64,000 bases of DNA from Armatimonadota bacterium (GTDB lineage Bacteria > Armatimonadota > UBA5829 > DSUL01). Each line of letters begins with the position of its first letter. The first letter of the stretch is position 1. Where the stretch lies: the NCBI GenBank assembly GCA_039811685.1, contig JBDHZC010000009.1, forward strand, positions 72,153 through 136,152, in the 5' to 3' direction. Positions 18,899-44,609 of this stretch are shown here, one piece after another. The notes beneath the pieces were generated by a model. The model was not told the origin of the DNA and ran no database searches. It was given only the letters and a program-made list of their open reading frames with translations. The position numbers were made by a program, and so were the translations under genes.

Positions 18899-18927
18899 TT
18901 GCATTTGCCTAAAACGCCTGTTATGAT
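18899..18927 (+). promoter_or_regulatory. sigma70-type promoter of the phage-like cluster
   Basis: TTGCAT (18899-18904), 17-bp spacer, TATGAT (18922-18927), AT-rich upstream element. Confidence 0.75.
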
Positions 18928-18928
18928 A

Positions 18929-18942
18929 CGAACAAATGTTCT
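18929..18942. promoter_or_regulatory. Putative LexA (SOS/Cheo) box
   Basis: CGAACAAATGTTCT = GAAC-N4-GTTC directly after the -10 element, over the predicted TSS. Confidence 0.7.
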
Positions 18943-18960
18943 GTTCAAGGAGGGCGAGGA

Positions 18961-19323
18961 GTGGTCCACGGTGCGGCGGTGGCGATCGGTTCTTCGCGCG
19001 GGTTGGCGCAGACGCTCTGGCGGCCGGCGCTGGAGGCGGTTGGCTCTGAGGGCACAGAAGCGCAGACGGGAGTGGCGTATCTGCTGGAGCGCGAGTTTCG
19101 CGAAGTGGTGGCGCTGGCGCGGATGAGCTTTCGGGAACGCGAGGCTCTGGAAATGGCTCGCTGCGGATGGAGTGAGACGGAGATGGGCAGGGCGCTTTCT
19201 CTCAGCCGCTCTCAGACGACAGAGTTGCTCTCCAAAGCGCGACGGAAGCTACAGGCGGCGCGCGAGAGATATCCGTTTGCGGGTCTGTGGGAAGTTTACC
19301 GGGATGAAGTAGCGCGGCTGTAG
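18961..19323 (+). CDS. sigma70 region-4/LuxR-type HTH protein, putative activator
   Basis: 'MSFREREALEMARCGWSETEMGRALSLSRSQTTELLSKARRKL' fits the sigma r4 HTH pattern; AAGGAGG/GAGGAG SD. Confidence 0.7.
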   Translation: MVHGAAVAIGSSRGLAQTLWRPALEAVGSEGTEAQTGVAYLLEREFREVVALARMSFREREALEMARCGWSETEMGRALSLSRSQTTELLSKARRKLQAARERYPFAGLWEVYRDEVARL

Positions 19324-19354
19324 GCACGGTGGTGGAGGTTGGGCTGAAGGGACT

Positions 19355-19735
19355 TTGCTGAAGAAAAAACAGAGCCAGGCAGTGGATCTGCTGTTTCTGG
19401 GCTCCCCGGAGAAGGTGGCGCAGAAAGTGGGCGTGCGGCACTCGACGCTGCAACGCTGGCTGGAGGACAGGCGCTTTCAGCAGGCGTTGAAGGCGCGGGC
19501 AAAGCAGAAGCGCAGGGCCAGCGAGCGCCTGGCGCTGCAGGCGGTGATGATGGCATCGAGCGCTCTTGAGGCGGCTCTTCGAACAGGTGAGGACCGGCCC
19601 GTGACGCGAGCGGCTCTGGAGACGTTGAAGATCAGCGGCGTATTGCCGGGCTGCCTGGAAGCGACGCGGGACAGCGCGGACTCTCTGGCGGATGTGATTG
19701 CGCGGGTGAAGGCGGAGATGGATGAGCACGGTTAG
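19355..19735 (+). CDS. Putative terminase small subunit (N-terminal HTH)
   Basis: 'KQSQAVDLL...EKVAQKVGVRHSTLQRWLED..F' HTH followed by helices; overlaps the TerL start. Confidence 0.65.
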   Translation: MLKKKQSQAVDLLFLGSPEKVAQKVGVRHSTLQRWLEDRRFQQALKARAKQKRRASERLALQAVMMASSALEAALRTGEDRPVTRAALETLKISGVLPGCLEATRDSADSLADVIARVKAEMDEHG

Positions 19736-21083
19736 CCGGGCGGGAAGTCAACCTCGGCTCCGGCTGGCCCTGGCTAAAGCGCTATGGAACTGGCAGGCGC
19801 ATCCGACGCAGAGAGAGTGGCTGTTGTGTGACGCTTCTGTAAAAACTGCGGCTTGCGGGCGGCGGTGGGGAAAGACGGAAGCGCAGGCCGTGGACGCAGC
19901 GAGCTTCGCGTTGGTGCACGATGGCTCTGAACAGATAGTGGTTGCGCCGACCTACGACCAGGCGTCACTCATTGCGCGCGGGGTCGAGCGCCTGTTGCTC
20001 GGCTCACCGGCAACGCGCACGCTAACGCAGGTGCGCCGGACTCCCTATCCGTTGATTACTGTTGGTCGGAGCCGGATTTCCGCCCGAACGGCGGATGAAG
20101 ACGGGCGCGCTCTGCGGGGACACCGCGCGGATCGCGTGATTGTGGACGAGGCGGCTTTTGTGCGTGACAGCGTTATCTCGGAGGTCATCCAACCTATGCT
20201 GGCGGACTCCGACGGGCAGCTTATCCTGATCAGCACTCCTTACGGGCGCAACCTGTTCTGGAAGCTGTGGAGCCAGGGCGCCTCCGGGAACCCGAAAGCC
20301 GCCTTCCGCTTTCCGTCCAGCGCAAATCCGCACATCAGCGCCCGCTATGTGGAAGAGCAGCGGGAGCGCCTGCCCGAGCGGGCCTTCCGGGCGGAGTATC
20401 TGGCTGAGTTTGTGGACGATCAGGCGCAGGTGTTCGCGTGGACGGATATTCAGCAGTGCTTTGAGCTTGGGCGCACGCCTCACCAACCCTCTAGCTCTGT
20501 GCGGGAGCGGCGCATTGTGGCGGGGATTGACTGGGCCCGCTACTCGGATTGGACGGTGTGTGCGGCGGTGGAGTGCGCCTGCGATCCATGGCGCGTTGTG
20601 GCTCTGGACAGGTTTCAGGGGCTGAGCTGGCAGGCGGCGGTGGAGCGCGTGGCAGGTTTTCTGAAAGACACTGAAGCGTGCGCTGCGCTCTCAGACGCAA
20701 CCGCAACAGGAGGAGATGCGCTCCTGGAGCAGCTTTGCGTGGCTGTAGCGGGAGCGGGTTGCGAGGTAGATGGTTATGTCTTCACGTCAACGTCCAAGCA
20801 GCATCTGGTGGAGAATCTGAGCGTGGTTATGGCGCGTGGCGGCCTTGCGCTGCCGCCGGAAGAGCTTTCGCATTCTGGGGCGCTGATTCACGAGTTGAAG
20901 AGCTATCAGTATGTCCAGCGCCCTGGCGGCGCTGTCAGCTTTGGCGCAGCGCCGGGGGAGCATGATGACTGCGTCACAGCGCTGGCTCTGGCCGTGTGGC
21001 AGGCGAAGAACGCGCCGCAGTGGCGGATTATGACATCGGGTGCGCTGCTCGGCGATCGGCGGCGCGGGCGCGCGTTGTGGTGA
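19722..21083 (+). CDS. terL: Terminase large subunit (Terminase_6-type)
   Basis: HPTQ, Walker A GRRWGKT, Walker B VIVDEAAF, ISTP, nuclease GIDWAR and HDDCVTALALA. Confidence 0.92.
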   Translation: MSTVSRAGSQPRLRLALAKALWNWQAHPTQREWLLCDASVKTAACGRRWGKTEAQAVDAASFALVHDGSEQIVVAPTYDQASLIARGVERLLLGSPATRTLTQVRRTPYPLITVGRSRISARTADEDGRALRGHRADRVIVDEAAFVRDSVISEVIQPMLADSDGQLILISTPYGRNLFWKLWSQGASGNPKAAFRFPSSANPHISARYVEEQRERLPERAFRAEYLAEFVDDQAQVFAWTDIQQCFELGRTPHQPSSSVRERRIVAGIDWARYSDWTVCAAVECACDPWRVVALDRFQGLSWQAAVERVAGFLKDTEACAALSDATATGGDALLEQLCVAVAGAGCEVDGYVFTSTSKQHLVENLSVVMARGGLALPPEELSHSGALIHELKSYQYVQRPGGAVSFGAAPGEHDDCVTALALAVWQAKNAPQWRIMTSGALLGDRRRGRALW

Positions 21084-21134
21084 TAAGTGAGCAGTCTCTC
21101 TGGTTAGGGCAGGGACACTGAGAAGGAGGGTTTT

Positions 21135-22232
21135 GTGGCAATAGCTGGTCTCTTGAAGCGTCTGAGGCGTGAGGGGAAGGGGTCTGAAGCGCCGGTGGAG
21201 CTGGCGGCAGCCAGGCGACGGTACTTATCCGGACCGGGCGCCTTGCTGCCGTACAATCCGGACGACCTTGCCCGGCGCGAGGGGCTGGAAGTGTACGACC
21301 GGATGCAGACGGATGCCCAGATTGCGGCGGCGCTGGTGACGAAGAAGTTTGCGGCACTGTCCGGGGGCTGGCGGGTTACGCCCGCTTCAGAGCGGCGCGA
21401 GGACGTGCAGGCGGCGCAGTTTTGTCACCGGGCACTGGAGGAGATGAAAGGGACGGTGGAAGACGCGCTCTACGGAGTGCTGGACGCTCTGGCAAAGGGC
21501 TACTCGGTGGCTGAGATGAACTTTGCGCGCGTTGGAGACCGCGTCGGTCTGGCGTCTATCAAACAGAAGGATCCGGCGCTGTTTGAGTTTGAGACAGACG
21601 AGTATCTGAACATCACAGCGCTTGTCAGGATAGGAACAGACGGAGATGAGCCCCGGAAGCTGCCTGTGGAGAAGTTCATCATCTACACCTACATGCCCAC
21701 CTATGCGGACCCGCGGGGACGCTCGGATCTGCGCTCATGCTACCGCCACTGGTGGACCAAAGATGTCATTCTGCGCTTTTTCGCGTCGTATCTGGAGCGC
21801 TTTGGCTCACCCGTGGTCAAGGGGACGTACCGCCGCGGGGCGACGCGCGCCCAGCAGGAGGATCTCCTGCGGATTCTGGACCGCATCCAGCAGGAGACCG
21901 CCATCGTCATTCCGGAGGACGTGACGGTGGATCTCCTTCAGGCGGGGCTGCAGGGCGAGAAGGGATTTCTGGAGGCCATCGCCTATCACGACCGGCAGAT
22001 GGCCAAAGCCATCCTCGGAGAAACGCTGACACAGGAAGAGGGGCTGCGCACGGGCGCTCTGGCTCTGGCGAAGGTGCATCAGGATACGCTGAAGCTGCGT
22101 CTGCAGAAGATCAAGCGCGATCTGGAGGAGACTGTGGCGCGTGAGCAGATTCTGCGTCCGCTGACACGGCTGAACTTTGCCGGAGCGGCTGTACCGCGGT
22201 TTGAGCTGGGCGCATTCGACGCCAGCGTGTGA
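21135..22232 (+). CDS. Portal protein, DUF935 / Mu gp29-like
   Basis: 'Y.RM..DAQI', LDALAKGYSVAEM, ERFGSP, MAKAILGETLT, 'A.VH', LNF..P; follows TerL. Confidence 0.87.
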   Translation: MAIAGLLKRLRREGKGSEAPVELAAARRRYLSGPGALLPYNPDDLARREGLEVYDRMQTDAQIAAALVTKKFAALSGGWRVTPASERREDVQAAQFCHRALEEMKGTVEDALYGVLDALAKGYSVAEMNFARVGDRVGLASIKQKDPALFEFETDEYLNITALVRIGTDGDEPRKLPVEKFIIYTYMPTYADPRGRSDLRSCYRHWWTKDVILRFFASYLERFGSPVVKGTYRRGATRAQQEDLLRILDRIQQETAIVIPEDVTVDLLQAGLQGEKGFLEAIAYHDRQMAKAILGETLTQEEGLRTGALALAKVHQDTLKLRLQKIKRDLEETVAREQILRPLTRLNFAGAAVPRFELGAFDASV

Positions 22233-22311
22233 AGCGCATGTGTTGGGTTTGGGCGGCGGACCCTGAGAGCCCGCTGACAGCAGGTAGGTTTGCCTGTTCT
22301 GCCTAAATTGA

Positions 22312-22360
22312 TTGACATAAACTACCGAAGAGGGTATAAGATAATTAACCTGGAAGTTAA
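22312..22360 (+). promoter_or_regulatory. Promoter and putative operator of the TAC module
   Basis: TTGACA-17 bp-TATAAG, then inverted repeat TTAAC-N6-GTTAA (22345-22360) just before the toxin ATG. Confidence 0.65.
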
Positions 22361-22362
22361 CA

Positions 22363-22746
22363 ATGCCAGTCTCGCTCTGTAAGCTGCCGCTCGCAGAGAG
22401 GGTCCCTGCTGTTCAGTATGAGTTCTACCTGTGGACGGATGGTGAGCGCTCGCCCGTTGCCGAGTTTCTGAGTAGCCTCCAGCCCGCAGACCTGGACAAG
22501 GTCAAGGCGTTGCTGGTCCGGGTGGCGCGCTGCGGGATTCCGAGGAATGGCGAGAGATACAAGCGTCTGGCGGGGAACTACGAAAATCTCCATGAGTTCA
22601 AGTTGCACCAGGTGAGGCTCTATTTCTTTATGGAGGGCAAGAAGATTGTCTTCACGGAGGCAGAGATCAAGAAGAGGGACCGGTCCAACCCCCAGGCGCT
22701 TGCCCGAGCTGATGCGCGACGACGGAGATATTCCAGTGAGAAGTAA
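22363..22746 (+). CDS. RelE/HigB-family toxin (Gp49-like)
   Basis: 'SPVAEFL..L', 'YKRL....LHEFK...VRLYFF', 'KK......ALARA'. Confidence 0.8.
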   Translation: MPVSLCKLPLAERVPAVQYEFYLWTDGERSPVAEFLSSLQPADLDKVKALLVRVARCGIPRNGERYKRLAGNYENLHEFKLHQVRLYFFMEGKKIVFTEAEIKKRDRSNPQALARADARRRRYSSEK

Positions 22747-22759
22747 AAGGACAGGCGAA

Positions 22760-23188
22760 ATGGCTGTAGATGATTTGTTGAAGAAGATGGCCGGGGGCGC
22801 CGAAAGCCCTGTCTATCAGACGGAGAAGGTTATTCTGGATTTCACGGAGCGCATCTGTGAGATTATGGAAGACTCGGGAACAAGCCGTGCTGAGCTGGCT
22901 GAACGGCTCGGGCGCTCTCGTCCGTGGGTGACCAAGCTCCTGAGAGGTGATCAGAATATGACCATTGCAACGATGGTCGGGGTCATGCTGGCTCTTGGCT
23001 ACGAACTGAGGCTTGAGGCGCTGCCACGTGACAGGGTCGCTGCGCAGTGGCAACTCATTGAAGAGAGCCATCCTCCGGTGATTAAACTCTTTCCCAGGGC
23101 TGCGCGAGATATCTCTTATGAGTTTGAGGAAGAGCTGGTTGCAGCGGAAGCAGGGAGCACAGCCGATGGACACACTGTCGCCGCTTGA
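22760..23188 (+). CDS. XRE-HTH antitoxin (HigA-like) with C-terminal ChAD-like extension
   Basis: 'SRAELAERLGRSRPWVTKLLRGDQNMTIATM..V..ALG' HTH followed by a ~50-aa low-structure tail. Confidence 0.82.
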   Translation: MAVDDLLKKMAGGAESPVYQTEKVILDFTERICEIMEDSGTSRAELAERLGRSRPWVTKLLRGDQNMTIATMVGVMLALGYELRLEALPRDRVAAQWQLIEESHPPVIKLFPRAARDISYEFEEELVAAEAGSTADGHTVAA

Positions 23189-23624
23189 GGCGAACCGGAT
23201 CTGGGTGGAGCGTCTGGATATTCGTTTTGCGCAGGAGCTTAGGGCGCACGACTGCTCGGCCTACGATCTGAAGATTGAGCCAAAGGCATGGAAGGACGCC
23301 AGTGGTGTCTCATACAAAGTGCGCCTGGCTTTTGCGCTGCGGCCTCGAGAAGTGGACCAGTGCTGCTACTCAAAGCTGGATGTCGCGATCGTTGGGGTTT
23401 TTACACTTCCTAGTGATACGGATGAGGCGATTCGTAGAAACCTGATTCCACTCAACTGTTATGTGATTCTCTACGGTTTTGCGCGCGGTCTTGTTGCACA
23501 GGTTACCGGTCTGAACCCGGGTGGGCCGTTTCTCTTGCCAGCGGTCAATTTTATGGAAGTCCTGCGCGCACAGCGGGCTCCGCGTCGCAAGGCCCTGAGG
23601 AGTGAGGTGGCGCAGGCTCAATAG
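23166..23624 (+). CDS. SecB-like chaperone
   Basis: SPL start, 'V.I.G.F', 'NCYVILYGFARGLVAQVT...P.GPFLLPAVNF' match the SecB C-terminal signature. Confidence 0.8.
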   Translation: MDTLSPLEANRIWVERLDIRFAQELRAHDCSAYDLKIEPKAWKDASGVSYKVRLAFALRPREVDQCCYSKLDVAIVGVFTLPSDTDEAIRRNLIPLNCYVILYGFARGLVAQVTGLNPGGPFLLPAVNFMEVLRAQRAPRRKALRSEVAQAQ

Positions 23625-23658
23625 ATAGGCGCGTTTTTCTGATAACGGCGGTTTTTTG

Positions 23659-23692
23659 AAGGCTCTTCGGACTTGTTCCGGAGGGCCTTTTT
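23659..23692 (+). terminator. Rho-independent terminator after the TAC module
   Basis: AAGGCTCTTCGGA-loop-TCCGGAGGGCCTT followed by a T run. Confidence 0.7.
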
Positions 23693-23736
23693 CATTGCCT
23701 GGCTTCGGTGTGAACCAGGAGAAAGGAAGGGTAGGC

Positions 23737-23880
23737 ATGGGGCTTCGTTGGCTGACACCTTTGTGGGCGGTGGTGCGCTCGGCGGTGCGGCGCAGGCTGC
23801 ATGAGCTTGTAGATTCTGTGGATGAAGAAGATGTGGAGCGCTTTCGCGAGCGGCTGCACACCTGTATAGACCTGCTGTGA
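23737..23880 (+). CDS. 47-aa hypothetical protein
   Basis: AAGGAAGG SD, amphipathic sequence, abuts the protease gene. Confidence 0.55.
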   Translation: MGLRWLTPLWAVVRSAVRRRLHELVDSVDEEDVERFRERLHTCIDLL

Positions 23881-23894
23881 GAGGAGATGTTCGT

Positions 23895-24695
23895 ATGACG
23901 CAAGGCAACAAGGGGACGACGCGCGGCCCGCTTGATGGGCAGCGCGCCGTAGTAGAACGCGAAGCGCTGCTGTTTGAAACCGGGGACTACCCGGACAAAA
24001 ACCTGAGCGTTACAGAAGAGACTCTGACGGCAATGGAGAGCGCGTTTGCGGCTCCAGCGCCCATTCGAGTGGAGCATACGGAGTCTCCAGTGCGCTTTGG
24101 CTGGCTGACAAAGGTCTGGAAGAGCGGACGGGCGCTGATGGGCAAGCTCTCGTTTACGCAGGCGGCATGGGAGTTGGTGCGTGAGAGCGGGGCGCGTTGT
24201 CTGTCCATCGGACTCAACCGCGACACACTGGCCATCGAGGAAGTCTCGTTGGTACGCAGTCCACGTGTGGCTACCGCGCGCATCTTTTCAAACGAAGCGC
24301 TGGCCATTTTCACGGCCGATCTGACAGAGGCTTTTTCAGCGGACTCAGTTGGCGTGGAGGTGGCAAAGCTGCGCTCGGAGCTGGCGCTGCGGGACGCAAA
24401 GGAGGATGTGCGGCGCTTTCTTGAGCGCGGCAAGCTTGCTCCCGCGGCTCAGGACGCGGCGCTGGCTCTGTTGGCGGCCCGATCGGAGCGTGTCAACTTT
24501 GGTTCTGAGCCTACCTGCGTAGCTGAGGTGTTCCGGCAGTTTATGGAAGCGCAGCCGCCTGTGGTACTGTTTGGCGAGCTGGCACCCGGATCTGCTGCGA
24601 AGGCCGGCCGGTTCGGCCAGGAAGATAGAAGGGTCTTTGCTCTGATGGGGATCAGCGAAGACGACATTGCGCGATTTGAGAAGGAGGGAGACTGA
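23895..24695 (+). CDS. Prohead protease/scaffold (Mu gpI-like)
   Basis: 'F.TG.Y', 'P..VEH', 'GW', 'FT..A..LV', 'LS', 'VSLV..P' protease-like N-domain; helical scaffold C-domain with GKLAPA. Confidence 0.75.
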   Translation: MTQGNKGTTRGPLDGQRAVVEREALLFETGDYPDKNLSVTEETLTAMESAFAAPAPIRVEHTESPVRFGWLTKVWKSGRALMGKLSFTQAAWELVRESGARCLSIGLNRDTLAIEEVSLVRSPRVATARIFSNEALAIFTADLTEAFSADSVGVEVAKLRSELALRDAKEDVRRFLERGKLAPAAQDAALALLAARSERVNFGSEPTCVAEVFRQFMEAQPPVVLFGELAPGSAAKAGRFGQEDRRVFALMGISEDDIARFEKEGD

Positions 24696-25109
24696 ATGGC
24701 GGCATTGACACAGGACAGGGACATCTGGCGCAGGGAGGGTCAGATTCTGAGCGTACCGGTGAAGGGCAACAAGGTGATTTTCAAAGGGGCGCTGGTGTGC
24801 TCCAGCGCGGGTTTCGCCACACCCGGCTCTGATACGAACGGGCTGCGTTTCTGCGGTGTGGCGCTTGAGAGCGCGGACAACACGGGTGGCCCGGACGGCG
24901 CGCTGAGTGTGCGAATCTGGCAGAGCGGTGTCTTTCCCGTCAGCAAGCCCTCCGCAACAGCTTCCGACATTGGCGCGGAGGTGGCGGTCGTGGACGATCA
25001 GACAGTTGATCTGCTCAGCGTCACGACCAATGACGTGAAGTGTGGGCGGATCGTCCGGGTGCTGTCCTCGAGTGAAGTGGAGCTGAAGGTGGATGGCTAC
25101 GCTTATTGA
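24696..25109 (+). CDS. Capsid decoration/cement protein
   Basis: MAALTQDR, 'IFKGALV', 'GVA.E.ADNT.G.DG', 'DIG..V...DDQTV' typical of Mu-like head decoration proteins; directly before the capsid gene. Confidence 0.72.
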   Translation: MAALTQDRDIWRREGQILSVPVKGNKVIFKGALVCSSAGFATPGSDTNGLRFCGVALESADNTGGPDGALSVRIWQSGVFPVSKPSATASDIGAEVAVVDDQTVDLLSVTTNDVKCGRIVRVLSSSEVELKVDGYAY

Positions 25110-25119
25110 GGGAGGGTGT

Positions 25120-25321
25120 CGGTCTTGATGGCCGGGTGCAGGTGGCCGGCGGATAAAACCGCGCTTTCGAAGCGAAGTCTCCCTTCGGAGACTATTCGCT
25201 TTGTCACGTGTCGGGGGTGCCGGTCTTGATGGCCTGGTGCAGGTGGCCGGCGGTTAAAACCGCGCTTTCGAAGCGAAGTCTCCCTTCGGAGACTGTTGGT
25301 TTTGTCACGTGTCGGGGGTGG
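25120..25321. repeat. 2 x 101-bp tandem repeat containing REP units (cluster B)
   Basis: Near-identical units each with GCCGGCGG(A/T)TAAAACCGCG...GCGAAGTCTCCCTTCGGAGACT. Confidence 0.88.
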
Positions 25322-25371
25322 GCCGGTGATGCGGGTGCGGGTGCGGGAAAATAGGGAGGTTAGAAGAAGCT

Positions 25372-26268
25372 ATGGGAATTGTAAAATCGGACATTCCCGC
25401 CGGGCTGACGGCGGGCGTGCGGGCGCTGTTTCTGAGATCAATGGAGACAGCGCCCTCGCACTACCGGAAGCTGGCGATGGTGATGCCATCCACAAAAAGT
25501 GAGGAGAAATACGCCTGGCTTTCGAGCGTGCCGGGCGTGCGGGAGTTCGTGGACGAGCGCCGGGCGGCGAGTTTGCAGGAGCGCTCCTTCACCATTGAAA
25601 ACAAGACGTGGGAAGCGACTATTGAGGTGGAGCGCGCGGCGCTGGAAGACGAGCAGTATGGGCAGATCAAACTGAGAGTGCAATCTCTGGCTGAGGCAGC
25701 GGCGCGCCACAAAGAGCAGATGGTCATAGACCTGCTGGCCAGAGGCTTTACTGATGAGTGCTATGATGGAGAGCCGTTCTTTTCCAGCACTCACCCTGCC
25801 GGGAGCGCTACACAATCCAACACGGGCGCCTCCGCTCTGTCTGCGTCTGCTGTGCAGTCAGCTATCTCTCAGATGGCGAAGCTGACGGACGAAGAGGGGC
25901 GGCCGCTGGGAGTTGTTGCGGACACGCTGATTGTGCCCCCCGATCTGGAATGGAAAGCTCTGGAGCTGGTAGGCAGTATTCTGGGTCCGGAGACGAGCCT
26001 GAACGCGATCAACCCTCTGCGCGGTCGTCTGGAAGTTATCGTGAGTCCGTACCTGACAGACGCGAACAACTGGTTTGTCGCAGCGACGAAAAGCGCCCTG
26101 AAGCCGTTCATTCTGCAGGAACGCACGGCTGTGGAGTTTGAGGCTCTGGATGGGCAGTCCGGCTCTGAGAGCGCCTTCATGCGGGATCGCTTCTACTACG
26201 GTGTGCGCGCCCGCTACAACGCGGGATACGGGCTTTGGCAGCTTGCCTATGGCAGCGCGGTTAGCTAG
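25372..26268 (+). CDS. Major capsid protein, Mu gpT family
   Basis: 'ST..EEKYAWL..VP..RE', IENKTWEAT, CYDGEPFFS..HP, LIVPP.LE, KPFILQER, YGVRARYNAGYGLWQLAYGS. Confidence 0.92.
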   Translation: MGIVKSDIPAGLTAGVRALFLRSMETAPSHYRKLAMVMPSTKSEEKYAWLSSVPGVREFVDERRAASLQERSFTIENKTWEATIEVERAALEDEQYGQIKLRVQSLAEAAARHKEQMVIDLLARGFTDECYDGEPFFSSTHPAGSATQSNTGASALSASAVQSAISQMAKLTDEEGRPLGVVADTLIVPPDLEWKALELVGSILGPETSLNAINPLRGRLEVIVSPYLTDANNWFVAATKSALKPFILQERTAVEFEALDGQSGSESAFMRDRFYYGVRARYNAGYGLWQLAYGSAVS

Positions 26269-26294
26269 CCGGCTACGGGTATCAGCTTGTTTCG

Positions 26295-26328
26295 GAGGCC
26301 CCGGATGGATTTCCGCGGCCTCTTTTTT
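26295..26328 (+). terminator. Rho-independent terminator after the capsid gene
   Basis: GAGGCC.CGGA...TCCG.GGCCTC followed by TTTTTT. Confidence 0.7.
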
Positions 26329-26349
26329 CATCTATTGAAAGGAGCGGAT

Positions 26350-26853
26350 ATGAGCGATTCTAGAAACGTGCTACCCGTAGCCGTTGATCTGGCGACAAAG
26401 CTGGCGGGTGAGGATCAGGTTAACGACTGGACAAAAACGGTGCGTGGCGGCCCGAGCGCCGCTCGCGTCTATACGCCGGAAGACACCGGCATCAACGGCC
26501 AGACGCTCGGGTCGGCGCTTGCGGGCAACTGGGTGGACACTGCGGGCTTTCGCACTGCCGTCGCGTTCATCCGCGTCGCGGGGACGTACGGCGGGTCCCC
26601 TTACGGTCTGGACCTGCTCGGCAGTCCCGTCGGCCCTGGAGACACCTGGGGGACGGACAATCAGTGGGCGGTGTCTCTTGGAAACCGCAGCGGTCTCACG
26701 GCGCTTGGCAGCTTCGTGCTCGGCAACACAGGCGTGGGCAACTACGCGTCGTCCTCGGCGTGGACTGGCTGCGTTGCCCGAAAGAGCCGTGTGGACGTCG
26801 GGGCAGCCGGCGCGAGCGCTCAGGCCTGGGCCTATCTGGTTTGTCTGCCATGA
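26350..26853 (+). CDS. Hypothetical virion-associated protein (Gly/Ser/Thr-rich, beta-rich)
   Basis: AAAGGAG SD; located after the capsid gene; composition. Confidence 0.6.
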   Translation: MSDSRNVLPVAVDLATKLAGEDQVNDWTKTVRGGPSAARVYTPEDTGINGQTLGSALAGNWVDTAGFRTAVAFIRVAGTYGGSPYGLDLLGSPVGPGDTWGTDNQWAVSLGNRSGLTALGSFVLGNTGVGNYASSSAWTGCVARKSRVDVGAAGASAQAWAYLVCLP

Positions 26854-27539
26854 GAGCCAGATTCCACTACAGACGCATCTGGTTTCTGGGCGACAGCCTG
26901 ACTGCTGGCTATGACGCATCCGCTGAGAGCGCGTGCTTTCGCACTGTCGCTACAGCATCGCTGCAGGCAGCAGCCCTGCTGCAGGACGCAGGGGCCCTGG
27001 TGATCCATTCAGCCAACCAGTACGGTGGAAAAGTCAAAGACGGCGTACGGCAGGCCATTGCGGAGGCCTCCTTTGCCGCAGACATCGCGGTGCTGCAGTT
27101 TGGAGAAAATGACCGGCCCTACGCTGTAGCCTTTCCAGAGCAGTACGCCCGGCTGATTGCCCAGTTTCAGCGGGAAGGGCGGCGGCCGCTGATTGTGGCT
27201 TTCTCCATCTGGGCGCCAACGCCAGACGCCTACAGCGCAGCCGTCAATGCCGATATTCGCGCTCTGGTAGAGACTTCAGGAGGCGCTTTTGTGGACATTC
27301 AGGCGGCGGCATCCGATCCGTTGAACCGCGAAGAAGGCCGGGATGTCACCTGGCTGGGGGATGAGCAGCACACTCTGTCTGACAGTTTTCATCCCAACGA
27401 CAGAGGGCATGCAAAGATGGCCACTGCCCTGATAGACGCGCTGTCCCCGTGGACAGCAGCAGGGCCACGGCGTCTCGCGGCTTCCGGGCGGCAGAGCTCG
27501 CAGACGCGCGGGGCTGCAGCGGAGCGGGTGAGCGCGTGA
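26850..27539 (+). CDS. SGNH/GDSL hydrolase
   Basis: Block I FLGDSLTAG, block III FGEND, block V DSFHPNDRGH; ATGA coupling to the upstream gene. Confidence 0.85.
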   Translation: MRARFHYRRIWFLGDSLTAGYDASAESACFRTVATASLQAAALLQDAGALVIHSANQYGGKVKDGVRQAIAEASFAADIAVLQFGENDRPYAVAFPEQYARLIAQFQREGRRPLIVAFSIWAPTPDAYSAAVNADIRALVETSGGAFVDIQAAASDPLNREEGRDVTWLGDEQHTLSDSFHPNDRGHAKMATALIDALSPWTAAGPRRLAASGRQSSQTRGAAAERVSA

Positions 27540-27555
27540 GCGAAAGGAGTGAGCA

Positions 27556-27990
27556 GTGAGTCTGACTATCACAAAGGCGGATGTCAAGCGCAAATGCATG
27601 ATTGATGCGGCGGACACAACCTGGGATGCCCCGATTGAGTCGCTGATTGACGAGATGCAGCCAGCCATCGAGTACACGCTGGATGAGAGCGCTCTGAACG
27701 ATCCGGAAGCGGGGCTCCAGGCGCTTCTACAGCTTGGCGTCCTGGAGCTGATTGTGGCGGAATTTCTGGCGCAGCGGTTCCGGGAGGCTGGCTATGCGGA
27801 GGAGTTTCAGGTTGGCGCAATTCGTATCGGCCAGCTCTGGGAGCGCGGAAAGGCGATTTTTGAGCAGGGCGCTGCGCGTCTGGCGCCATTTCGAAAGGCG
27901 ATGGGCGTGTCGGATGCGCAGACGAAAGTCCTGTCAAGCAGCGTATCCCACCCTCGTTTGATGTCTTCGACTGAACGGAAGGGCTGGTGA
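27556..27990 (+). CDS. Putative head-completion adaptor protein
   Basis: 'IT.ADVKR......D..I..LI' helical start like gp6/gp15-type adaptors; position; AAGGAG SD. Confidence 0.55.
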   Translation: MSLTITKADVKRKCMIDAADTTWDAPIESLIDEMQPAIEYTLDESALNDPEAGLQALLQLGVLELIVAEFLAQRFREAGYAEEFQVGAIRIGQLWERGKAIFEQGAARLAPFRKAMGVSDAQTKVLSSSVSHPRLMSSTERKGW

Positions 27991-28292
27991 TGGGGGCTTT
28001 TACAAAGCGGATGGATGCGAAGCTGGCAGTGTACGGTGAGCTTATCTCGCTGGGTGGTGTGGATGTGCGCGCGCTGGTGCAGGACATGACCAGCAGCTAC
28101 ATTACTACCTACTTTGACCCGCCGGATCAGTCTTCCGTGATCCGTCCGGGACTGCTGGCCGTTGTCGGGGCGGACGTTTCGGCGAGCGCTGGGCAGTCGG
28201 TAAGTCTGGGCGCGCGGACCTACACCGTGTGGAAGGTGGCGCCTCAACATCTGGCTGGTCAGGTCGTCTGTCAGGTGCTGGCGCTTTATTGA
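27990..28292 (+). CDS. Putative head-closure (stopper, FII/gp16-like) protein
   Basis: ~100-aa beta protein, 'YGE.I', 'G..V.LG.RTYTV..V'; follows the adaptor. Confidence 0.5.
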   Translation: MGAFTKRMDAKLAVYGELISLGGVDVRALVQDMTSSYITTYFDPPDQSSVIRPGLLAVVGADVSASAGQSVSLGARTYTVWKVAPQHLAGQVVCQVLALY

Positions 28293-28303
28293 AAGGAGGG
28301 AGA

Positions 28304-28534
28304 GTGGATAGTAGAGATATTATGTCGCGCCTGGCGGTTATTGAGGCGCGGCTGCAGGATGCGCTTGGGCATCTAGTGGAGATCCGCCGGCATGTGCCAG
28401 GCACGCTGATTTCGCATACCGAACGGATAGCCTCTGTTGAGCGCGCGCAGAGAAGTCTGGTCTGGGGACTGGCGGCTGCGTTTGGTGGGTTCTTGAGCGC
28501 TTTTGTCGCTCACATCTTTGGAGGATTGCCATGA
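28304..28534 (+). CDS. Putative holin (XhlA-like coiled coil plus C-terminal TM)
   Basis: 'RLAVIEARL...ERIASVE...W' then one TM helix; AAGGAGG SD; directly before the endolysin. Confidence 0.6.
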   Translation: MDSRDIMSRLAVIEARLQDALGHLVEIRRHVPGTLISHTERIASVERAQRSLVWGLAAAFGGFLSAFVAHIFGGLP

Positions 28535-28989
28535 TAAGCGCGCAGAGCGCCGGCGCCCAGCTCGCCGAAGTTTGTGCCCATCTGGCGCACTGGCGCAAGG
28601 GCGCGGCCAACCCGGAAGGACGTTGTCTGGAAGCGGTGCGCTGGGCCCTGGCGCAGGAAGCCTTGAGTCTCCCTGGCCCCTTTGTGCGCCCGAACAACAC
28701 GGCATTGGGGTGCTTTGATGCCCTGGAGAAAGCGCCGGAGCGGTGGAGCTGGCAGAGATGGACCCACGCGCAGCATCCCGGACAGAGCCTGCCGCTATGC
28801 CTGGTGTTTTTCAAGGACTGCGGGTATCTGTCCGACGGTCGCGTTGCCGGGCACGTGGCGGTGTACGACCCGGCCCGCCGCCGCCATGAGGCGAATCAGG
28901 TATATCCGATGACGCTGTGGTGGGCGCAGCGGTTGATCGGGGCGTTTGTGCCGCTCAGAAGGCCGGGTATTGGAGGCGCCGGCGGTTGA
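28531..28989 (+). CDS. Putative endolysin, CHAP/NlpC-P60-like Cys-His amidase
   Basis: 'GRCLEAVRWAL', 'P..LVFF', 'AGHVAVY'. Confidence 0.65.
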   Translation: MISAQSAGAQLAEVCAHLAHWRKGAANPEGRCLEAVRWALAQEALSLPGPFVRPNNTALGCFDALEKAPERWSWQRWTHAQHPGQSLPLCLVFFKDCGYLSDGRVAGHVAVYDPARRRHEANQVYPMTLWWAQRLIGAFVPLRRPGIGGAGG

Positions 28990-29156
28990 AACCGACTCTG
29001 CGGGACGGGGAGGCGCCGGCGGTTGAAACCGCGCCTGTGGGACGGGGAGGCGCCGGCGGTTGAAACCGCGCCTGTGGAACGAAGTCTCCCTTCGGAGACT
29101 TTTGGTTGTGAGCCTGCGAAGGCAGGCTTTGTCTGGTTAGAGGCGACTTCAGTCGC
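28972..29156. repeat. REP cluster C (three 37-bp-spaced units plus an inverted variant, BIME-like)
   Basis: GGAGGCGCCGGCGGTTGAAACCG x3, then AGTCTCCCTTCGGAGACT, then opposite-orientation AGCCTGCGAAGGCAGGCT...GCGACTTCAGTCGC. Confidence 0.88.
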
Positions 29157-29523
29157 TCAGCTCTCTTGACCGGAGAGAATCGACTATCTCCTGTGTCTGG
29201 TACACGACTCGGGACTCGGTCCAGGAGGGATTCTGGACGTGGAGCAGCTCATGCACAATGTCCTCCAGCGTCAGAATTCGCGTGTGATAGATGGTCGCGA
29301 TATGTGTGTCATAGACCACTCCGACCAGTGACCAGCCCGGGCGGCCGTCTTCGCCCGTCACCTGAAACCGGCTGATGCGCTCCAGAATGATGCGCTGGGG
29401 TATGCGCAGGCGTTGACGCCAGAAATGCGCCGCATCTCTGGCCTGGTCGTCAGTCAGAGGCTGAAGAGGCGCTCGATGGGATATCTGTGTGTGAACGTGC
29501 TGCAAAGACTCCGGCTCCGACAT
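29149..29523 (-). CDS. Small HExxH-motif (zincin-like) hypothetical protein
   Basis: IVHELLHV motif; start uncertain. Confidence 0.55.
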   Translation of the reverse strand: MSEPESLQHVHTQISHRAPLQPLTDDQARDAAHFWRQRLRIPQRIILERISRFQVTGEDGRPGWSLVGVVYDTHIATIYHTRILTLEDIVHELLHVQNPSWTESRVVYQTQEIVDSLRSRELSD

Positions 29524-29876
29524 CCTGCGATGTGAGTGATCCGCCGCCGGTCTCATCCTGTGCGGCCTTTGCGGACAAGACTTTCACTTGCGACATGTCT
29601 AATCATCGGCACAGTTCTGACAGGTCTCCAGTCCTGCTATTCAACGTAGAGGAGGCTGGCGCGGGCGGTCAGGCGGTGGAGGGCTTCGGACCAGCGCGCC
29701 CGCAGAGACTCTCTCACAAAAGGCCCTGCTCAGGCGCCTGCGGCTTCAGAAAATGGCGAATTCTGGGCTCTCAGTAGAACAAACCGGGCGGTGTCACGCG
29801 TCTTTATATGTGCGCGTGTAGAGGGATTGCGGGCGCGCCTTTGTTGTCCGGCATCGGAGTAAATGAACCAGAGCCT

Positions 29877-31629: not shown

Positions 31630-33015
31630 TCAGGCGGCGCTTGCCAGCGTCTGGCGGATCTGTTCACAGGCTTCCGTCAGTACCAGCGTCTCCTCATTCT
31701 CGCAGGCATGTGTCGAGGTGACCACCAGCGGTTCCCCCTGTTCGATGGCGACAAGCACGTCTGTGAAGTTGGAGGCCTCCTCCGGGTAGGTCACGAAAGT
31801 CAGCGTTCCGCGCAGAGTCAGAAGCTCCTGTGCGTGTTCCCCGTTGAGCTGCTCGACAATGTCGCGGATGCGCTCGCACACTCTGGCGCCGGCGCTACCC
31901 GTATGCGGCAGCACCAGCCCTATCTGATGATCGTTGTAGCGGGCGACGATGTCAGCCTTGCGCACCCGGGAGCGAATGATCTGACCAATACGGAACAGCC
32001 GCTCGTCCGTGGACATGGGCGTCCATCCACGGCCAGAGTCGCACATGTACTCCATTGTCAACACCATCGCGGCTACGGGATAGCCATGGCGGCTGGCGCG
32101 TGAGAGCTCTTCTTCCAGCCTTGCCAGAAAATAGGCTCGCGAATACAGCTCTGTCGCTGAGTCTGTCACCTCAGCCGCAGGAGTCACACCGCGCGCGCCC
32201 GCATGCTTGTGCATGGAGCGCATCTGGATCTGAACTTCGCGGATATCTTCCGTTGTGATGATCTTGCGCAGTTTCTTGGTGGAGTTGCGCAGAATGTGCG
32301 ACACGTAGTTGCACGAGATTCCCAGCTTTCGCGCAATCTCCGTCTGGTTCAGGTCTTTGAAGTAGTACTCGTGAATGACGTCCTGCTCGATGTTCTTCAG
32401 ACGCTCCACAGAGGTTTCCAGCACCATCCGATCTTCCAGGGGCAACTGAAAAGTCTCGTACTTCAGGCGTTTGGCGGACTCGGCGTCCGCCGCCAGCGAG
32501 CCAGTGGGGTCGTCCCGGTCGCCGTCCAGCGATGATACCTTGAACACCTCCCGCGTCGTCAGCATCTCTCGCACGTCATCTTCGCTGATTTTCATGACAG
32601 AGGCAATCTCAGCTTCCGCAGGCGCGCGGCCAAACTGCTGGGCGAGTGACTCTATGACGCGCGTCATCCGCTGGTTGAGCTCCTGTAGCCAGGCTGGCTC
32701 CTTGATGATCTTGCCCTTGTCTCTCAGATAGTGCTTAATCTGCCCGATGACAAAGTGCGTCGCGTACGTGGAGAACTTGACGCCTTTGCTGACGTCGAAG
32801 CCTTCCACTGCGGAAATCAGCCCGATGTAGCCCTCCTGAACAAGGTCCTCCACAGGCTCTCCCGCGCCTGCAAAGCGGCGGCCGACAGACTCCACCAGAT
32901 TAGTGTACTGCGTCACCAGCCGGTCCCGGGCGCGAGTATCCCGCTTTTCCCGATATCTGTTAAGTAACTTGAGTATCTGCTCTTCCGTGAGCCGTGATGC
33001 TTGCGTGTTTCTCAT
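31630..33015 (-). CDS. SigB/SigF-type RNA polymerase sigma factor fused to a degenerate GGDEF domain
   Basis: Region 2 EDLVQEGYIGL/FSTYA/G.IKHYLRDKG, region 3 SLD, region 4 LNQTEIARKLGISCNYVS; C-terminal 'D..T.LY.R.YF..RLEEELSRA.R' and RKADIVARYNDHQI. Confidence 0.88.
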   Translation of the reverse strand: MRNTQASRLTEEQILKLLNRYREKRDTRARDRLVTQYTNLVESVGRRFAGAGEPVEDLVQEGYIGLISAVEGFDVSKGVKFSTYATHFVIGQIKHYLRDKGKIIKEPAWLQELNQRMTRVIESLAQQFGRAPAEAEIASVMKISEDDVREMLTTREVFKVSSLDGDRDDPTGSLAADAESAKRLKYETFQLPLEDRMVLETSVERLKNIEQDVIHEYYFKDLNQTEIARKLGISCNYVSHILRNSTKKLRKIITTEDIREVQIQMRSMHKHAGARGVTPAAEVTDSATELYSRAYFLARLEEELSRASRHGYPVAAMVLTMEYMCDSGRGWTPMSTDERLFRIGQIIRSRVRKADIVARYNDHQIGLVLPHTGSAGARVCERIRDIVEQLNGEHAQELLTLRGTLTFVTYPEEASNFTDVLVAIEQGEPLVVTSTHACENEETLVLTEACEQIRQTLASAA

Positions 33016-34235
33016 TATTGGATGTTGTTCACAATCTTGAACATAGGCGCCATGATTGAGACAGCGATAAATCCAACTATCCCACCCATGATGACAATAA
33101 GAGCAGGTTCGATCATCGAGGTGAGTCCTTTCACCGCGTTGTCGACCTCGTCGTCAAAGAAGTCAGCCACTTTGACGAGCATTTCTGAAAGCCGGCCAGT
33201 TTCCTCACCGACGTCGATCATGTGAGTTACCATTGCCGGGAACACGCCGCTGGCGGCCAGTGGCGCACTCACTTTCTGACCCTCCCGGATGGAGTTTCGC
33301 GCCTGGTCCACGGCCCGGGCAATCACCATGTTGCCGGAGGTCTCCCCGACAATCTCAAGTGACCGCATCATTGGGACGCCGCTCGCGATGAGCGTGCCGA
33401 ATGTGCGCGAAAACCGTGACACCGCCATCTTCTGCACCAGTTCTCCGACAACGGGCATGCGCAGCTTCAACTGGTCGTAGTGGAAGCGCCCGGCAGGCTG
33501 TTTGAGCACCCATTTGATGCCAAACCATCCAGCCAGACCCAGGCCAATCGGAACATAGATGTAGTGTCTCAAAATATCGCTCATTGCGAAAAGCATGGCG
33601 GTTGCGGGCGGGAGCTCCGCGTTCATGGAAGAGAATATCTCCTTGAACGTGGGCAGGACGAAGATGAAGATACCGTTGACCATGCCCGCAGCAAATATGA
33701 GAACGATGATGGGGTACATCATAGCGCTCTTGATCTTGTTGCGGATCTCCTGTTCCTTCTCCAGGAATCCGGAGACGCGTTCGAGAATTGTGTCCAGAAT
33801 ACCGCCCGTCTCCGCAGCTTTGATCATATTCACGTAGAGCTTGTTGAAGACACCGGGATGTTTGCTGAACGCCTCGGTGAGGCTGACTCCGCCCTTGACA
33901 TCTTTCTTGCAGATGTCAATAACCTCAGCCAGTACCGGGTCTTTCGTCTGCTGCCCCAGAATCTCCAGACACTTGATAATCCCGATTCCAGCCTCGATCA
34001 TTGTGGCCAACTGCCGGGTAAAGACGACAAGCTGCTGCAGCTTGATCTTCTTGCCTTTAGTCGAGACACTTTTGGTTTTGGCGCCCGTAGTGGCGCTGCG
34101 CCGCTTCTTGATGTTGACGACGTGAAAGTGCTGCTGCTGGAGCTTACTGAGCACCAGGCTCTCGGACTCTGCTTCGATTCTTCCGCTGATCGTCTTTCCG
34201 GAGGGATCGACGACGCTGTACTGATAAACTGGCAT
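33015..34235 (-). CDS. pilC: Type IV pilus platform protein PilC
   Basis: FTRQLATMI.AG, AAETGG.LD, KIKSAMMYP, GEETG.L, IEP. Confidence 0.93.
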   Translation of the reverse strand: MPVYQYSVVDPSGKTISGRIEAESESLVLSKLQQQHFHVVNIKKRRSATTGAKTKSVSTKGKKIKLQQLVVFTRQLATMIEAGIGIIKCLEILGQQTKDPVLAEVIDICKKDVKGGVSLTEAFSKHPGVFNKLYVNMIKAAETGGILDTILERVSGFLEKEQEIRNKIKSAMMYPIIVLIFAAGMVNGIFIFVLPTFKEIFSSMNAELPPATAMLFAMSDILRHYIYVPIGLGLAGWFGIKWVLKQPAGRFHYDQLKLRMPVVGELVQKMAVSRFSRTFGTLIASGVPMMRSLEIVGETSGNMVIARAVDQARNSIREGQKVSAPLAASGVFPAMVTHMIDVGEETGRLSEMLVKVADFFDDEVDNAVKGLTSMIEPALIVIMGGIVGFIAVSIMAPMFKIVNNIQ

Positions 34236-35410: not shown

Positions 35411-35444
35411 AAATGAATCTCCAGGGCGCCGCATGCGCCGCCCG

Positions 35445-36881: not shown

Positions 36882-37005
36882 TCAGTTCTCCCGCGGAGGC
36901 CGTGCGAAGGCTCTCCAGTGAAGGCCGCCCTCATCGGGACGTCCTGTTTCTTAAACGGCACGCAAAGACGCCGCATCCTGCGGCTGTTATTGACGGACAC
37001 CCTTA

Positions 37006-37033
37006 TTATCGGCAGTCCGATGGCTTTGGTTGA
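37006..37033 (-). promoter_or_regulatory. sigma28 (FliA/WhiG)-like promoter upstream of pilT
   Basis: Minus strand TCAA-N16-GCCGATAA. Confidence 0.55.
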
Positions 37034-37079
37034 ATCCCCCAAAACCCAAATTTTCACGCTCAACTCGGGCGGCGAGAAT

Positions 37080-37201
37080 GCCCGGCGATTGAAATCGCGG
37101 CTGCGAAACGAAGTCTCCCTTCGGAGACTGTCTGGCTCCTCAACTAACGCCCCCCGGCGATTGAAATCGCGGTTGCGAAACGAAGTCTCCCTTCGGAGAC
37201 T
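37080..37201. repeat. REP cluster D (two units, 72-bp period)
   Basis: CCCGGCGATTGAAATCGCGG(C/T)TGCGAAACGAAGTCTCCCTTCGGAGACT x2. Confidence 0.88.
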
Positions 37202-37260
37202 GCTGGACGCTTCAAGTCATCTCTGTAGTCGGTACGGGACGCTCTCTTTCGGCTCTTTGA

Positions 37261-38979: not shown

Positions 38980-39175
38980 GCTTGCTGCGTCCCAGAGTAT
39001 AACGTTCGGTCGAGGCTGCTATCGCCGTCTTGAGACTGTCGCCGCCGTGGCGGCAGCCTTAAGAAAGCGACTTCTGTCTGCCGCCCCCCTGCCGTGACCT
39101 GGTAAAGTGGGCAGGGGAGCCGGTCCCTGCGCCCCCCGGAGAAGCAGAGGGGCGCAGGTGTTTCAGACAGGCGTA

Positions 39176-42253: not shown

Positions 42254-42335
42254 AGTGATGCTCCCTGCAAATGCTCCTCTGGATTGAGACATATGATTTC
42301 CCCACCCGGCATGGCAGACGGGGACGCTCGCCCGT

Positions 42336-43058: not shown

Positions 43059-43161
43059 TGTTCAGTAGCTCTCAATGTCAGACCGCACCCCTGAGGGGGC
43101 GGCCATCAATGTCAGTCCAAGCCCGTAGTCAGAGCTCGGTGGCTAAACCATGTTCGGTTGT

Positions 43162-44536: not shown

Positions 44537-44609
44537 AGTCTTAAGTTCCGCTTAGTCTGAGTCGCATAGCAGAGCGCGACCCGATGGCTTTGAGCCGGAC
44601 TGTGGTCTG

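Follow-up and report, generated by a model that had tools for sequence, protein, structure and literature searches.

A tail-less head, packaging and lysis gene module of phage origin that appears to be resident in one class of Armatimonadota

Introduction

Packaging of random host DNA is the defining behaviour of gene transfer agents (GTAs), and to our knowledge all well-studied GTAs are head-plus-tail particles, while the formation of tail-less capsids has been described only for mobile satellites. Here, a gene cluster of an Armatimonadota bacterium (assembly GCA_039811685.1, 15 contigs, 97% complete) is described, which was studied in a 64,000-nucleotide stretch of contig JBDHZC010000009.1. 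This whole stretch is called the window, and all coordinates of the cluster and its surroundings refer to it. The cluster is read as a module of phage origin for head, packaging, neck and lysis functions that is resident and vertically inherited in one Armatimonadota class and that is GTA-like in status, a reading to which we assign a probability of roughly 0.55. No published description of a GTA or a head-only element in Armatimonadota was found in open-access papers and bioRxiv.

GTAs of the RcGTA type and of independent lineages resemble the cluster in several respects. They consist of phage structural genes that are fixed in the chromosome and are not accompanied by replication or integration genes, they co-diverge with their hosts under purifying selection, they receive host-type regulatory input and are released by lysis, as is predicted for the cluster, and they are occasionally lost or decay (these properties of GTAs are given in the accessible portions of PMC11841831, PMC10883770 and PMC9765227). 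In contrast, the RcGTA virion is tailed (PDB 6tba, which was among the fold matches obtained here), and neither the cluster nor the rest of the genome yielded tail genes in the searches made. Further differences from RcGTA are that the head genes are of the Mu type, that the lysis genes are located inside the cluster, that the phylum is a different one, and that the system is known here from its genes alone.

An integrase and a regulatory and replication module are features of phage-inducible chromosomal islands (PICIs). The capsid-forming PICIs (cf-PICIs) resemble the cluster in that they have capsid, portal, terminase and connector genes of their own and no tail genes. According to the accessible part of a preprint, they release DNA-filled, tail-less capsids, which later join free phage tails (bioRxiv 10.1101/2025.02.11.637232). 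Unlike in cf-PICIs, neither an integrase nor a replication module was detected in the cluster and the DNA flanking it, the packaging genes are of the Mu type instead of the HK97 type, and a LexA-type operator and lysis genes are present. In addition, identical cf-PICIs have been reported across several species and genera, whereas the divergence of the cluster tracks that of its hosts.

The head modules of the phages Mu and JBD30, with portal, protease-scaffold, gpT capsid and neck adaptor, contain the nearest sequence and fold relatives of the cluster. However, the cluster has no transposase, no Mu F-like protein and no tail, the C-terminal segments of its capsid protein are swapped, and its portal is shorter, with about 150 residues at the C-termini of the Mu and JBD30 portals having no counterpart. 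In lateral transduction, the terminase acts on an integrated, non-excised prophage and packages the adjacent chromosome in successive headfuls. Such a process would be plausible for the cluster, which has no excision or replication genes, although the known cases are complete tailed phages.

Results

A co-directional operon with a predicted full set of head genes

A listing of open reading frames (ORFs) together with Pfam and PHROG scans revealed a single, co-directional and tightly packed operon at about 18.9-29.0 kb, all genes of which are on the plus strand. Their order is regulator, TerS, TerL, portal, a three-gene cassette, protease/scaffold, decoration protein, capsid, a protein without family assignment, GDSL hydrolase, adaptor, stopper, holin-like protein and putative endolysin. 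All reading frames are intact and coupled, and the GC content at third codon positions (GC3) is 0.63-0.80, which is like that of the host genes. With TerS, TerL, portal, protease-scaffold, decoration protein, capsid, adaptor and stopper, the cluster encodes the predicted full set for assembling, filling and sealing a capsid, and a putative lysis pair in addition.

A first-pass annotation of the DNA sequence had already contained most of these genes at the correct positions, and had overlooked the three-gene cassette at 22363-23624 and the REP-like repeats (repetitive extragenic palindromes; both described below). It had also noted that both flanks consist of host genes and that att-like repeats are absent. 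This was verified: the flanking genes encode a PhyH dioxygenase and a fatty-acid desaturase, and no att-like direct repeat was found in the flanks.

The module is conserved throughout the class

For the comparative searches one genome per species was used, and "class" denotes the class of the source organism. A capsid gene was present in 46 of the 52 other class genomes, nearly always as one copy. The five families of the class all contributed (f1 4/5, f2 6/6, f3 10/11, f4 24/28, f5 2/2), and 2 of 8 sampled genomes outside the class were also positive. TerL, with a few weak or fragmentary matches, and the portal were each detected in 45 of the 52 genomes. In a sample of the phylum (401 genomes that were at least 85% complete), the capsid was found in 41 of 44 class genomes. 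It was also frequent in some other families (f18 15/16, f29 22/31, f13 35/71), and it had no match in many more (f8 0/21, f27 0/20, f25 0/14).

Twenty loci were fetched, 16 of which are the primary copies of the class. Each of these 16 class loci contains portal, protease, decoration, capsid and adaptor genes; a stopper was found in 15, TerL in 13 and TerS, by tblastn, in 11 of them. The order TerS-TerL-portal-protease-decoration-capsid-adaptor-stopper is retained in 15 of the 16 class loci, down to a divergence of about 50% protein identity. A GNAT gene, a GGDEF gene and a gene for a 1005-amino-acid protein were found as inserts in gaps of class loci. The first-pass annotation had suggested to look for the same gene order in relatives and had named a full prophage at this site as evidence against domestication; the same order recurred in the class, and none of the relatives' loci carried a full prophage.

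Sequence of the window was also present in public DNA sequencing runs of several studies of sludge, wastewater and soil, and DNA contigs of two other studies connect the cluster with the host gene on its left, as in the source genome. In addition, short contigs from RNA libraries of two studies matched exactly inside eight cluster genes, which is a weak hint of transcription; the gaps in this cover are uninformative.

The head genes have co-diverged with the host under purifying selection

The p-distances of the head genes were compared with those of MutS in 20 genomes by Mantel tests with 2000 permutations. The correlations with MutS were high for the capsid (r 0.90, 20 taxa), the portal (0.93, 15 taxa), TerL (0.91, 12 taxa), the decoration protein (0.87, 20 taxa), the adaptor (0.89, 19 taxa) and the protease (0.92, 16 taxa), and for every gene the observed value was reached in 0 of the 2000 permutations. 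The mean p-distance of the capsid (0.355) was nearly the same as that of MutS (0.362), showing that the capsid evolves as slowly as MutS. In quick, single-gene trees of both proteins, the capsid recovered the families f1, f2 and f3 as well as f4 minus one taxon (support 22), and its sister pairs were those of the MutS tree.

The ratios of nonsynonymous to synonymous substitutions (dN/dS, method NG86) of six core genes were 0.04-0.10 in a pair of genomes with a dS of 0.22-0.31 and 0.025-0.066 in a second pair; pairs that involve the source genome are saturated (0.14-0.38). In two species of one genus the flanking genes are the same, with 92-98% identity. By these measures the module is vertically inherited under purifying selection. 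Both had been named as checks in the first-pass annotation: the distances (r 0.87-0.93) and the congruent trees bore out vertical inheritance, and the dN/dS values turned out to be far below 1.

No tail or mobility genes were found

Pfam and PHROG searches with the ORFs of the cluster yielded no tail, integrase, transposase, primase, replication or Mu F-like family, and no integrase, transposase, primase or tail family was found in the flanks of six class-level loci that were examined in detail. The annotated class-level loci themselves were likewise free of tail, integrase and primase families. The search was extended to the whole genome, where profile searches gave no match to Phage_sheath_1, PhageMin_Tail or Baseplate_J and did not reveal a second terminase. 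With the ORFs of four fuller phage-like relatives as queries, the cluster and host genes were the only matches, and 2730 bait ORFs, which came from 86 related viral or prophage loci, did not identify any other phage-like cluster. An unlinked tail locus, the presence of which had been proposed as a check, was thus not found in the genome with the queries used; as these queries and the 97% completeness set the limits of the search, divergent tail genes could escape it.

One tblastn match, obtained with two long prophage ORFs (C3:5124-6257), was rejected, because it is a BNR_4 glycosidase gene beside ribosomal protein genes.

A putative LexA operator overlaps the promoter region

Upstream of the regulator gene a promoter-like sequence is present on the plus strand, which consists of TTGCAT (18899-18904), a 17-nucleotide spacer and TATGAT (18922-18927). 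It was not listed in a consensus promoter scan. Two bases 3' of TATGAT lies the palindrome GAACAAATGTTC (18930-18941), a putative LexA operator. The motif GAAC-N4-GTTC is the LexA operator of Bacillus subtilis according to the accessible text of PMC4234289.

The genome contains 27 sites of this form (7.9 per Mb) versus about 47 that are expected from base composition, and only 6 of them are intergenic. The motif is not enriched genome-wide, and its meaning hinges on these six intergenic sites. They include the site at the cluster promoter, a site 29 bp before ftsK and a site 36 bp before the gene of a Y-family polymerase, which is a classic SOS gene. A lexA gene is present in the source genome. 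In 11 of 21 distinct relatives a perfect site was found at most 700 bp upstream of TerS, and 80 related loci together contained 70 sites in 1.17 Mb, located in 46 of the loci, i.e., about 60 per Mb. The cluster is probably SOS-controlled via the putative LexA operator. The SOS inducibility that had been proposed in the first-pass annotation thus gained support from the sites at the promoter, before the polymerase gene and upstream of the relatives' TerS genes.

In some relatives, GAACATACGTTC or GAACATATGTTC was found at a fixed place inside coding sequence (L044, L047, L048, L050 and L052; L066-L078, L099 and L114). In one family the site is located 234 nucleotides into the decoration-gene match, and in the Capsulimonadaceae it is close to the 3' end of the protease gene and precedes the capsid gene by about 330 bp. 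Such in-gene sites could be internal LexA-controlled promoters or operators, or they could be conserved codons.

Regulator, packaging and head genes

The first gene (18961-19323), which is preceded by the Shine-Dalgarno (SD) sequence AAGGAGGG (18947-18954), encodes a small putative regulator with a helix-turn-helix (HTH) resembling sigma-70 region 4. The gene had been annotated as a regulator before, and this assignment is retained only with reservation, as the match to Pfam Sigma70_r4_2 is weak (E 5.8e-4, below the curated cut-off). Homologues with 42-44% identity are located upstream of TerS, in divergent orientation, in two relatives of the same family.

TerS (19355-19735) has an N-terminal HTH and matches phrog_7344 (E 9.5e-8), three other TerS PHROGs and Pfam HTH_Tnp_1_2. 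TerL (19722-21083) overlaps the end of TerS, matches Terminase_6N (2.3e-12; the only such match in the genome) and is covered by phrog_2 over residues 24-432 (5.5e-38). The portal of 365 amino acids (21135-22232) belongs to the Mu type (DUF935; Portal_Mu 4.5e-70) and is single-copy in the genome. Its nearest solved structures are the portals of Mu (512 amino acids) and JBD30 (526 amino acids), which are aligned over residues 53-352; the open frames of the relatives encode 369-474 amino acids.

The next head gene (23877-24695) encodes a prohead protease fused to a scaffold-like C-terminus, similar to Mu gpI/Z; it is the C-terminus that matches phrog_976 (head maturation protease) and Mu-like_Pro (positions 219-329). 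In an alignment of 17 sequences, a variable linker and a conserved C-terminus were observed, and EH with His67, LS with Ser110 and the motif EVS.V..PR are invariant, which makes the assignment as a protease firmer. His67 and Ser110 are presumably the catalytic residues. The head decoration or cement protein follows directly (24696-25109; phrog_1731 7.4e-28, weak match to Phage_cement_2).

The major capsid protein (25372-26268) is a single-copy member of the Mu gpT superfamily (Mu-like_gpT 1.6e-74, Phage_capsid_4 1.8e-17), and among solved structures the capsids of JBD30 and Mu come nearest to it. The Mu type of the head genes, as had been recognized in the first-pass annotation, is evident from the portal and the capsid. 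The C-terminal half of the capsid is permuted in comparison to the Mu and JBD30 capsids: residues 226-294 correspond to JBD30 162-229, and residues 172-202 align with its segment 250-280. In the match to Pfam gpT the same permuted pieces are seen, while the Phage_capsid_4 match is colinear.

Two further genes lie between the capsid and the neck genes. The first encodes a protein of 168 amino acids (26350-26853) that did not match anything in Pfam and PHROG searches; its ORF opens at 26287, and the relatives align from about residue 22. Homologues were found in 2 of the 16 class loci, both of the same family. The second, which overlaps it by ATGA, encodes a GDSL/SGNH hydrolase (26850-27539; Lipase_GDSL_2 3.6e-16) that is present in only 1 of the 16 class loci. 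It may act as an envelope or polysaccharide esterase.

Neck and lysis genes

The adaptor and the stopper, neither of which had a match in the family scans, were assigned with AlphaFold models, which were built from alignments of 17 and 16 relatives, respectively; the profiles of the same alignments did not match any PDB sequence at E values up to 1. The head-to-tail adaptor (27556-27990, 144 amino acids) was modelled as a helical bundle with a predicted local distance difference test (pLDDT) value of 75. A wide search with VIA-align gave mostly phage adaptors in the top rows, including the P74-26 neck (Z 9.2), HK97 gp6 (7.8), a Mu neck subunit (6.8) and the RcGTA virion chain (5.5), values that are modest for a helical protein. 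The call depends on this search, because Foldseek did not return any significant row with the adaptor model (the best was a phage connector with E 1.2).

The stopper or head-closure protein (27987-28292, 101 amino acids) is of the lambda gpFII / SPP1 gp16 type, and its model has a pLDDT of 91. The top Foldseek rows were stoppers, namely 2pp6 and those of T1, R4C, the lambda neck and the SPP1 connector (gp16), with E values from 1.5e-3 to 5e-2, probabilities of 0.99-1.0 and template modelling (TM) scores of 0.5-0.65.

The stopper gene and the next gene are separated by the 11-bp sequence AAGGAGGGAGA, which carries the SD sequence AAGGAGGG ahead of the GTG start codon at 28304, exactly as had been described in the first-pass annotation. 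The gene (28304-28534) encodes a holin-like protein of 76 amino acids with one C-terminal membrane helix, which did not match any family in Pfam and PHROG scans. An RLAVIE motif and the hydrophobic C-terminal helix (Kyte-Doolittle 1.8-2.3) are conserved in eight relatives; the gene was detected in 8 of the 16 class loci, and in relatives it is located directly 5' of the endolysin gene. The conserved helix and the gene position suggest a function as a holin.

The last gene (28531-28989) encodes a putative papain-like (CHAP/NlpC-P60-like) endolysin that is specific to the source genome. It had no match in Pfam and PHROG searches; the assignment is based on protein language-model neighbours, which include CHAP, NlpC_P60 and Amidase_5 clusters (scores 0.93-0.94), and on a Cys/His pattern. 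The earlier calls of holin and endolysin stand with regard to the genes and their positions, while the functional assignments are weak. At the same position the relatives encode endolysins of the Amidase_3, M15/VanY, NlpC/P60 or M23-like type, indicating that families have swapped the enzyme and retained lysis. In one relative of the same family (L017, G004:C2:925000-942500) the cluster ends with an Amidase_3 endolysin gene, about 0.6 kb from dnaA.

Inserts, repeats and neighbouring genes

Between the portal and the protease genes a toxin-antitoxin-chaperone (TAC)-like cassette is located (22363-23624, plus strand). It comprises a Gp49/HigB-like toxin (22363-22746; Pfam Gp49 27.2 bits, cut-off 23.9), an HTH antitoxin with a long C-terminal tail (probable start at 22760, end at 23188; HTH_31 and phrog_1373, the HTH families being weak) and a SecB-like chaperone (23118 or 23166 to 23624; SecB 25.8 bits, cut-off 26). 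The local GC content drops to 0.57 and thus below that of the surroundings, and the three genes were found in the same order in one other of the 16 class loci (G004). The cassette is predicted to be a TAC-like moron outside the core of the module.

Two tandem REP-like units of 101 bp, each with the hairpin AGTCTCCCTTCGGAGACT, are located between the decoration and the capsid genes (25110-25371). At the end of the cluster, three tandem repeats of 37 bp are followed by a third, partial copy of the REP-like unit with the hairpin AGTCTCCCTTCGGAGACT and a T-rich tail (28972-29110), which is likely the end of the operon. The genome contains 12 copies of the hairpin, frequently in arrays and at the ends of contigs. 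Public contigs break at the REP-like units (25110-25371) and at 29031-29048, and none of those listed spans the latter positions. One RNA-library contig skips 25110-25366 (depth 2, the shorter side has 31 letters), which is most simply explained by a strain without the REP-like insert.

An ORF of 135 amino acids with an HELLH motif (29149-29556, minus strand) converges on the end of the cluster. It had no family match and no homologue in the relatives' loci, and it was left outside the cluster. At a distance of 2.6 kb downstream of the cluster, a gene on the minus strand (31630-33015) encodes a protein in which the sigma-70 regions 2, 3 and 4 are fused to GGDEF. It is weakly similar to the product of a GGDEF gene that is located inside the cluster, in the gap between protease and decoration genes, in one family (among L028, L087, L089 and L095). 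In two Capsulimonadaceae loci (L073, L078) the neighbouring gene on the upstream side encodes a PAS-GGDEF-EAL protein. A type IV pilus gene set (PilC, two PilT-like ATPases, PilB, secretin, PilO, PilN and PilM; 33015-46376, minus strand) begins 4 kb downstream of the cluster.

Relatives outside the class are rearranged

In the Capsulimonadaceae and the Armatimonadales, the gene order is decoration-protease-capsid-adaptor-x-portal, with TerL located elsewhere. In the Fimbriimonadia it is protease-decoration-capsid-adaptor, sometimes followed by TerL and the portal, and one such locus lies between a tRNA synthetase gene and rpsD. Such rearrangement and dispersal are unusual for phages, and the loci outside the class fit a long residence in the chromosome.

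Some Capsulimonadaceae genomes contain two to four copies. In one case (L226, G279:C3:1-16400) a unit of 15,312 bp is repeated head to tail on a 25-kb contig, with 1000 of 1000 bases identical at this offset. The unit carries TerL, decoration, protease, capsid, adaptor and portal genes, an HTH_17 (excisionase-like) gene and about 10 unknown small genes, and no tail family was found in it in the scan. Its capsid shows the same three-piece gpT match as the capsid of the source organism. Another copy (L100) is located near genes for a Prim-Pol/DUF3987 primase and a restriction-modification system. Similar contigs are classed as viral in IMG/VR.

Discussion

The domesticated, GTA-like interpretation had been proposed in the first-pass annotation together with in silico checks, and it was supported by them. 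According to this interpretation, DNA damage would remove LexA, and the regulator and the operon would then be expressed in some of the cells. Since genes for excision and replication are absent from the locus, the terminase would have to cut the chromosome; it might do so at many sites, as in GTAs, or packaging might begin at a pac site in the locus and run into the neighbouring DNA, similar to lateral transduction. The adaptor and the stopper would close the filled heads, and the holin and the endolysin would release them. Delivery would need a tail from elsewhere, and the free phage tails that are used by cf-PICIs would be the best precedent.

Several observations have to be weighed against a resident, vertically inherited module of GTA-like status. 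Particles, packaged DNA and transfer are predictions from the gene content, and since no DNA delivery is known for a tail-less capsid, a role in gene transfer needs an outside partner. The module is dispensable, as three class genomes that are 96-99% complete (G002, G011, G014) have no capsid gene, and five others (G017, G029, G020, G022, G023) have in-frame stops in capsid, portal or TerL, or only fragments of TerL; these stops, fragments and absences look like lineage-specific decay or loss. The flanking genes differ between genera and families, which fits rearrangement over deep divergence, but also occasional relocation. With respect to regulation, no GAAC-N4-GTTC box was found in the upstream regions of lexA and recA, both of which closely follow another gene, and some of the conserved sites of the relatives are within coding sequence, so that not all of them may be operators. 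The holin and endolysin calls in the source genome are weak, and the RNA-library contigs could also stem from DNA carry-over. The genes in the relatives' loci were called with our own ORF and GC3 heuristic, by which small genes may be missed. Last, four loci outside the class (L226, L115, L116 and L100) are candidates for mobile or episomal capsid-forming satellites. The existence of such head-only relatives suggests that the fixed module may descend from a satellite that had no tail to begin with.

It is therefore tempting to consider a more specific version, which we put forward tentatively. The cluster might represent a domesticated Armatimonadota lineage of tail-less capsid-forming satellites that is controlled by LexA, that packages chromosomal DNA into sealed, tail-ready heads, and that becomes infectious only via the pirated free tails of whatever phages are available.

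A domesticated capsid-forming satellite might also have been kept for a role other than transfer, either interference with phages, by soaking up tails, or by cutting and packaging DNA and lysing the cell early, or an SOS-triggered altruistic lysis with release of DNA; selection would then act on defence or on a population benefit and not on DNA delivery. A head that ends in adaptor and stopper would present the surface on which a siphovirus-type tail docks, there are head-only relatives of episomal or mobile appearance, and the gaps hold defence-like or moron cargo such as the TAC-like cassette or, in L100, restriction-modification genes. Furthermore, cf-PICIs lowered the yield of a helper phage more than 100-fold in one case reported in the accessible part of the preprint (bioRxiv 10.1101/2025.02.11.637232). 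Vertical descent and purifying selection fit any benefit for the host, and none of the results separates such a role from gene transfer. A LexA promoter answers to DNA damage in general and not specifically to infection. We know of no helper phage or compatible tail for these organisms. Overall, we regard a function other than transfer as rather doubtful. Less probable again is a still-mobile satellite, either cf-PICI-like or of a new kind, that spreads horizontally via an unrecognised recombinase and owes its distribution to infection. Capsid and packaging genes without a tail are also found in cf-PICIs (bioRxiv 10.1101/2025.02.11.637232, accessible part), and the differing flanks of the genera, the two to four copies in some Capsulimonadaceae, including the 15.3-kb head-to-tail unit with its HTH_17 gene, and the viral listing in IMG/VR would be in accordance with mobility. 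However, frequent horizontal spread would have erased the signal that the head-gene distances follow MutS and that the capsid tree recovers host families and sister pairs, which makes this explanation unlikely. Nearly all class genomes have exactly one copy, contigs of two other studies extend across the left junction into the host gene that is located there in the source genome, and searches of the cluster and of the class loci examined gave no match to integrase, primase or excisionase families. Att-like repeats were not found either. An SOS operator and lysis genes of its own would not be needed by a satellite that depends on a helper.

The Mu-type head genes and the missing tail and transposition genes might also be taken as signs of a decaying Mu-like prophage that no longer has its tail, transposase and regulatory genes and is on its way to disappearing, and the stops and fragments in a few relatives and the three class genomes without the cluster would fit this. 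Such a remnant is contradicted by the conserved gene order, by distances and trees that track MutS, and by the low dN/dS. The frames are intact and coupled, dN/dS is 0.03-0.10, the capsid evolves as slowly as MutS, the same truncated architecture is present in 15 of the 16 class loci, and endolysins have been replaced instead of lost. A remnant prophage is thus very improbable.

If the tentative version with a satellite ancestor were true, the cluster would be the first GTA-like element that is derived from a satellite and not from a complete prophage, and the first that is tail-less by design. Piracy of tails would then mean that the recipient range of gene transfer by the host is set by other viruses. 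More generally, GTAs and tail-less satellites would be linked by a module for tail-less heads, packaging and lysis that is passed on throughout a class of bacteria in the manner of a housekeeping gene. For a little-studied phylum that is frequently encountered in sludge and soil, such a module would open the way to test which selection keeps such elements, whether they can be domesticated from satellites, and whether tail piracy serves gene exchange or defence.

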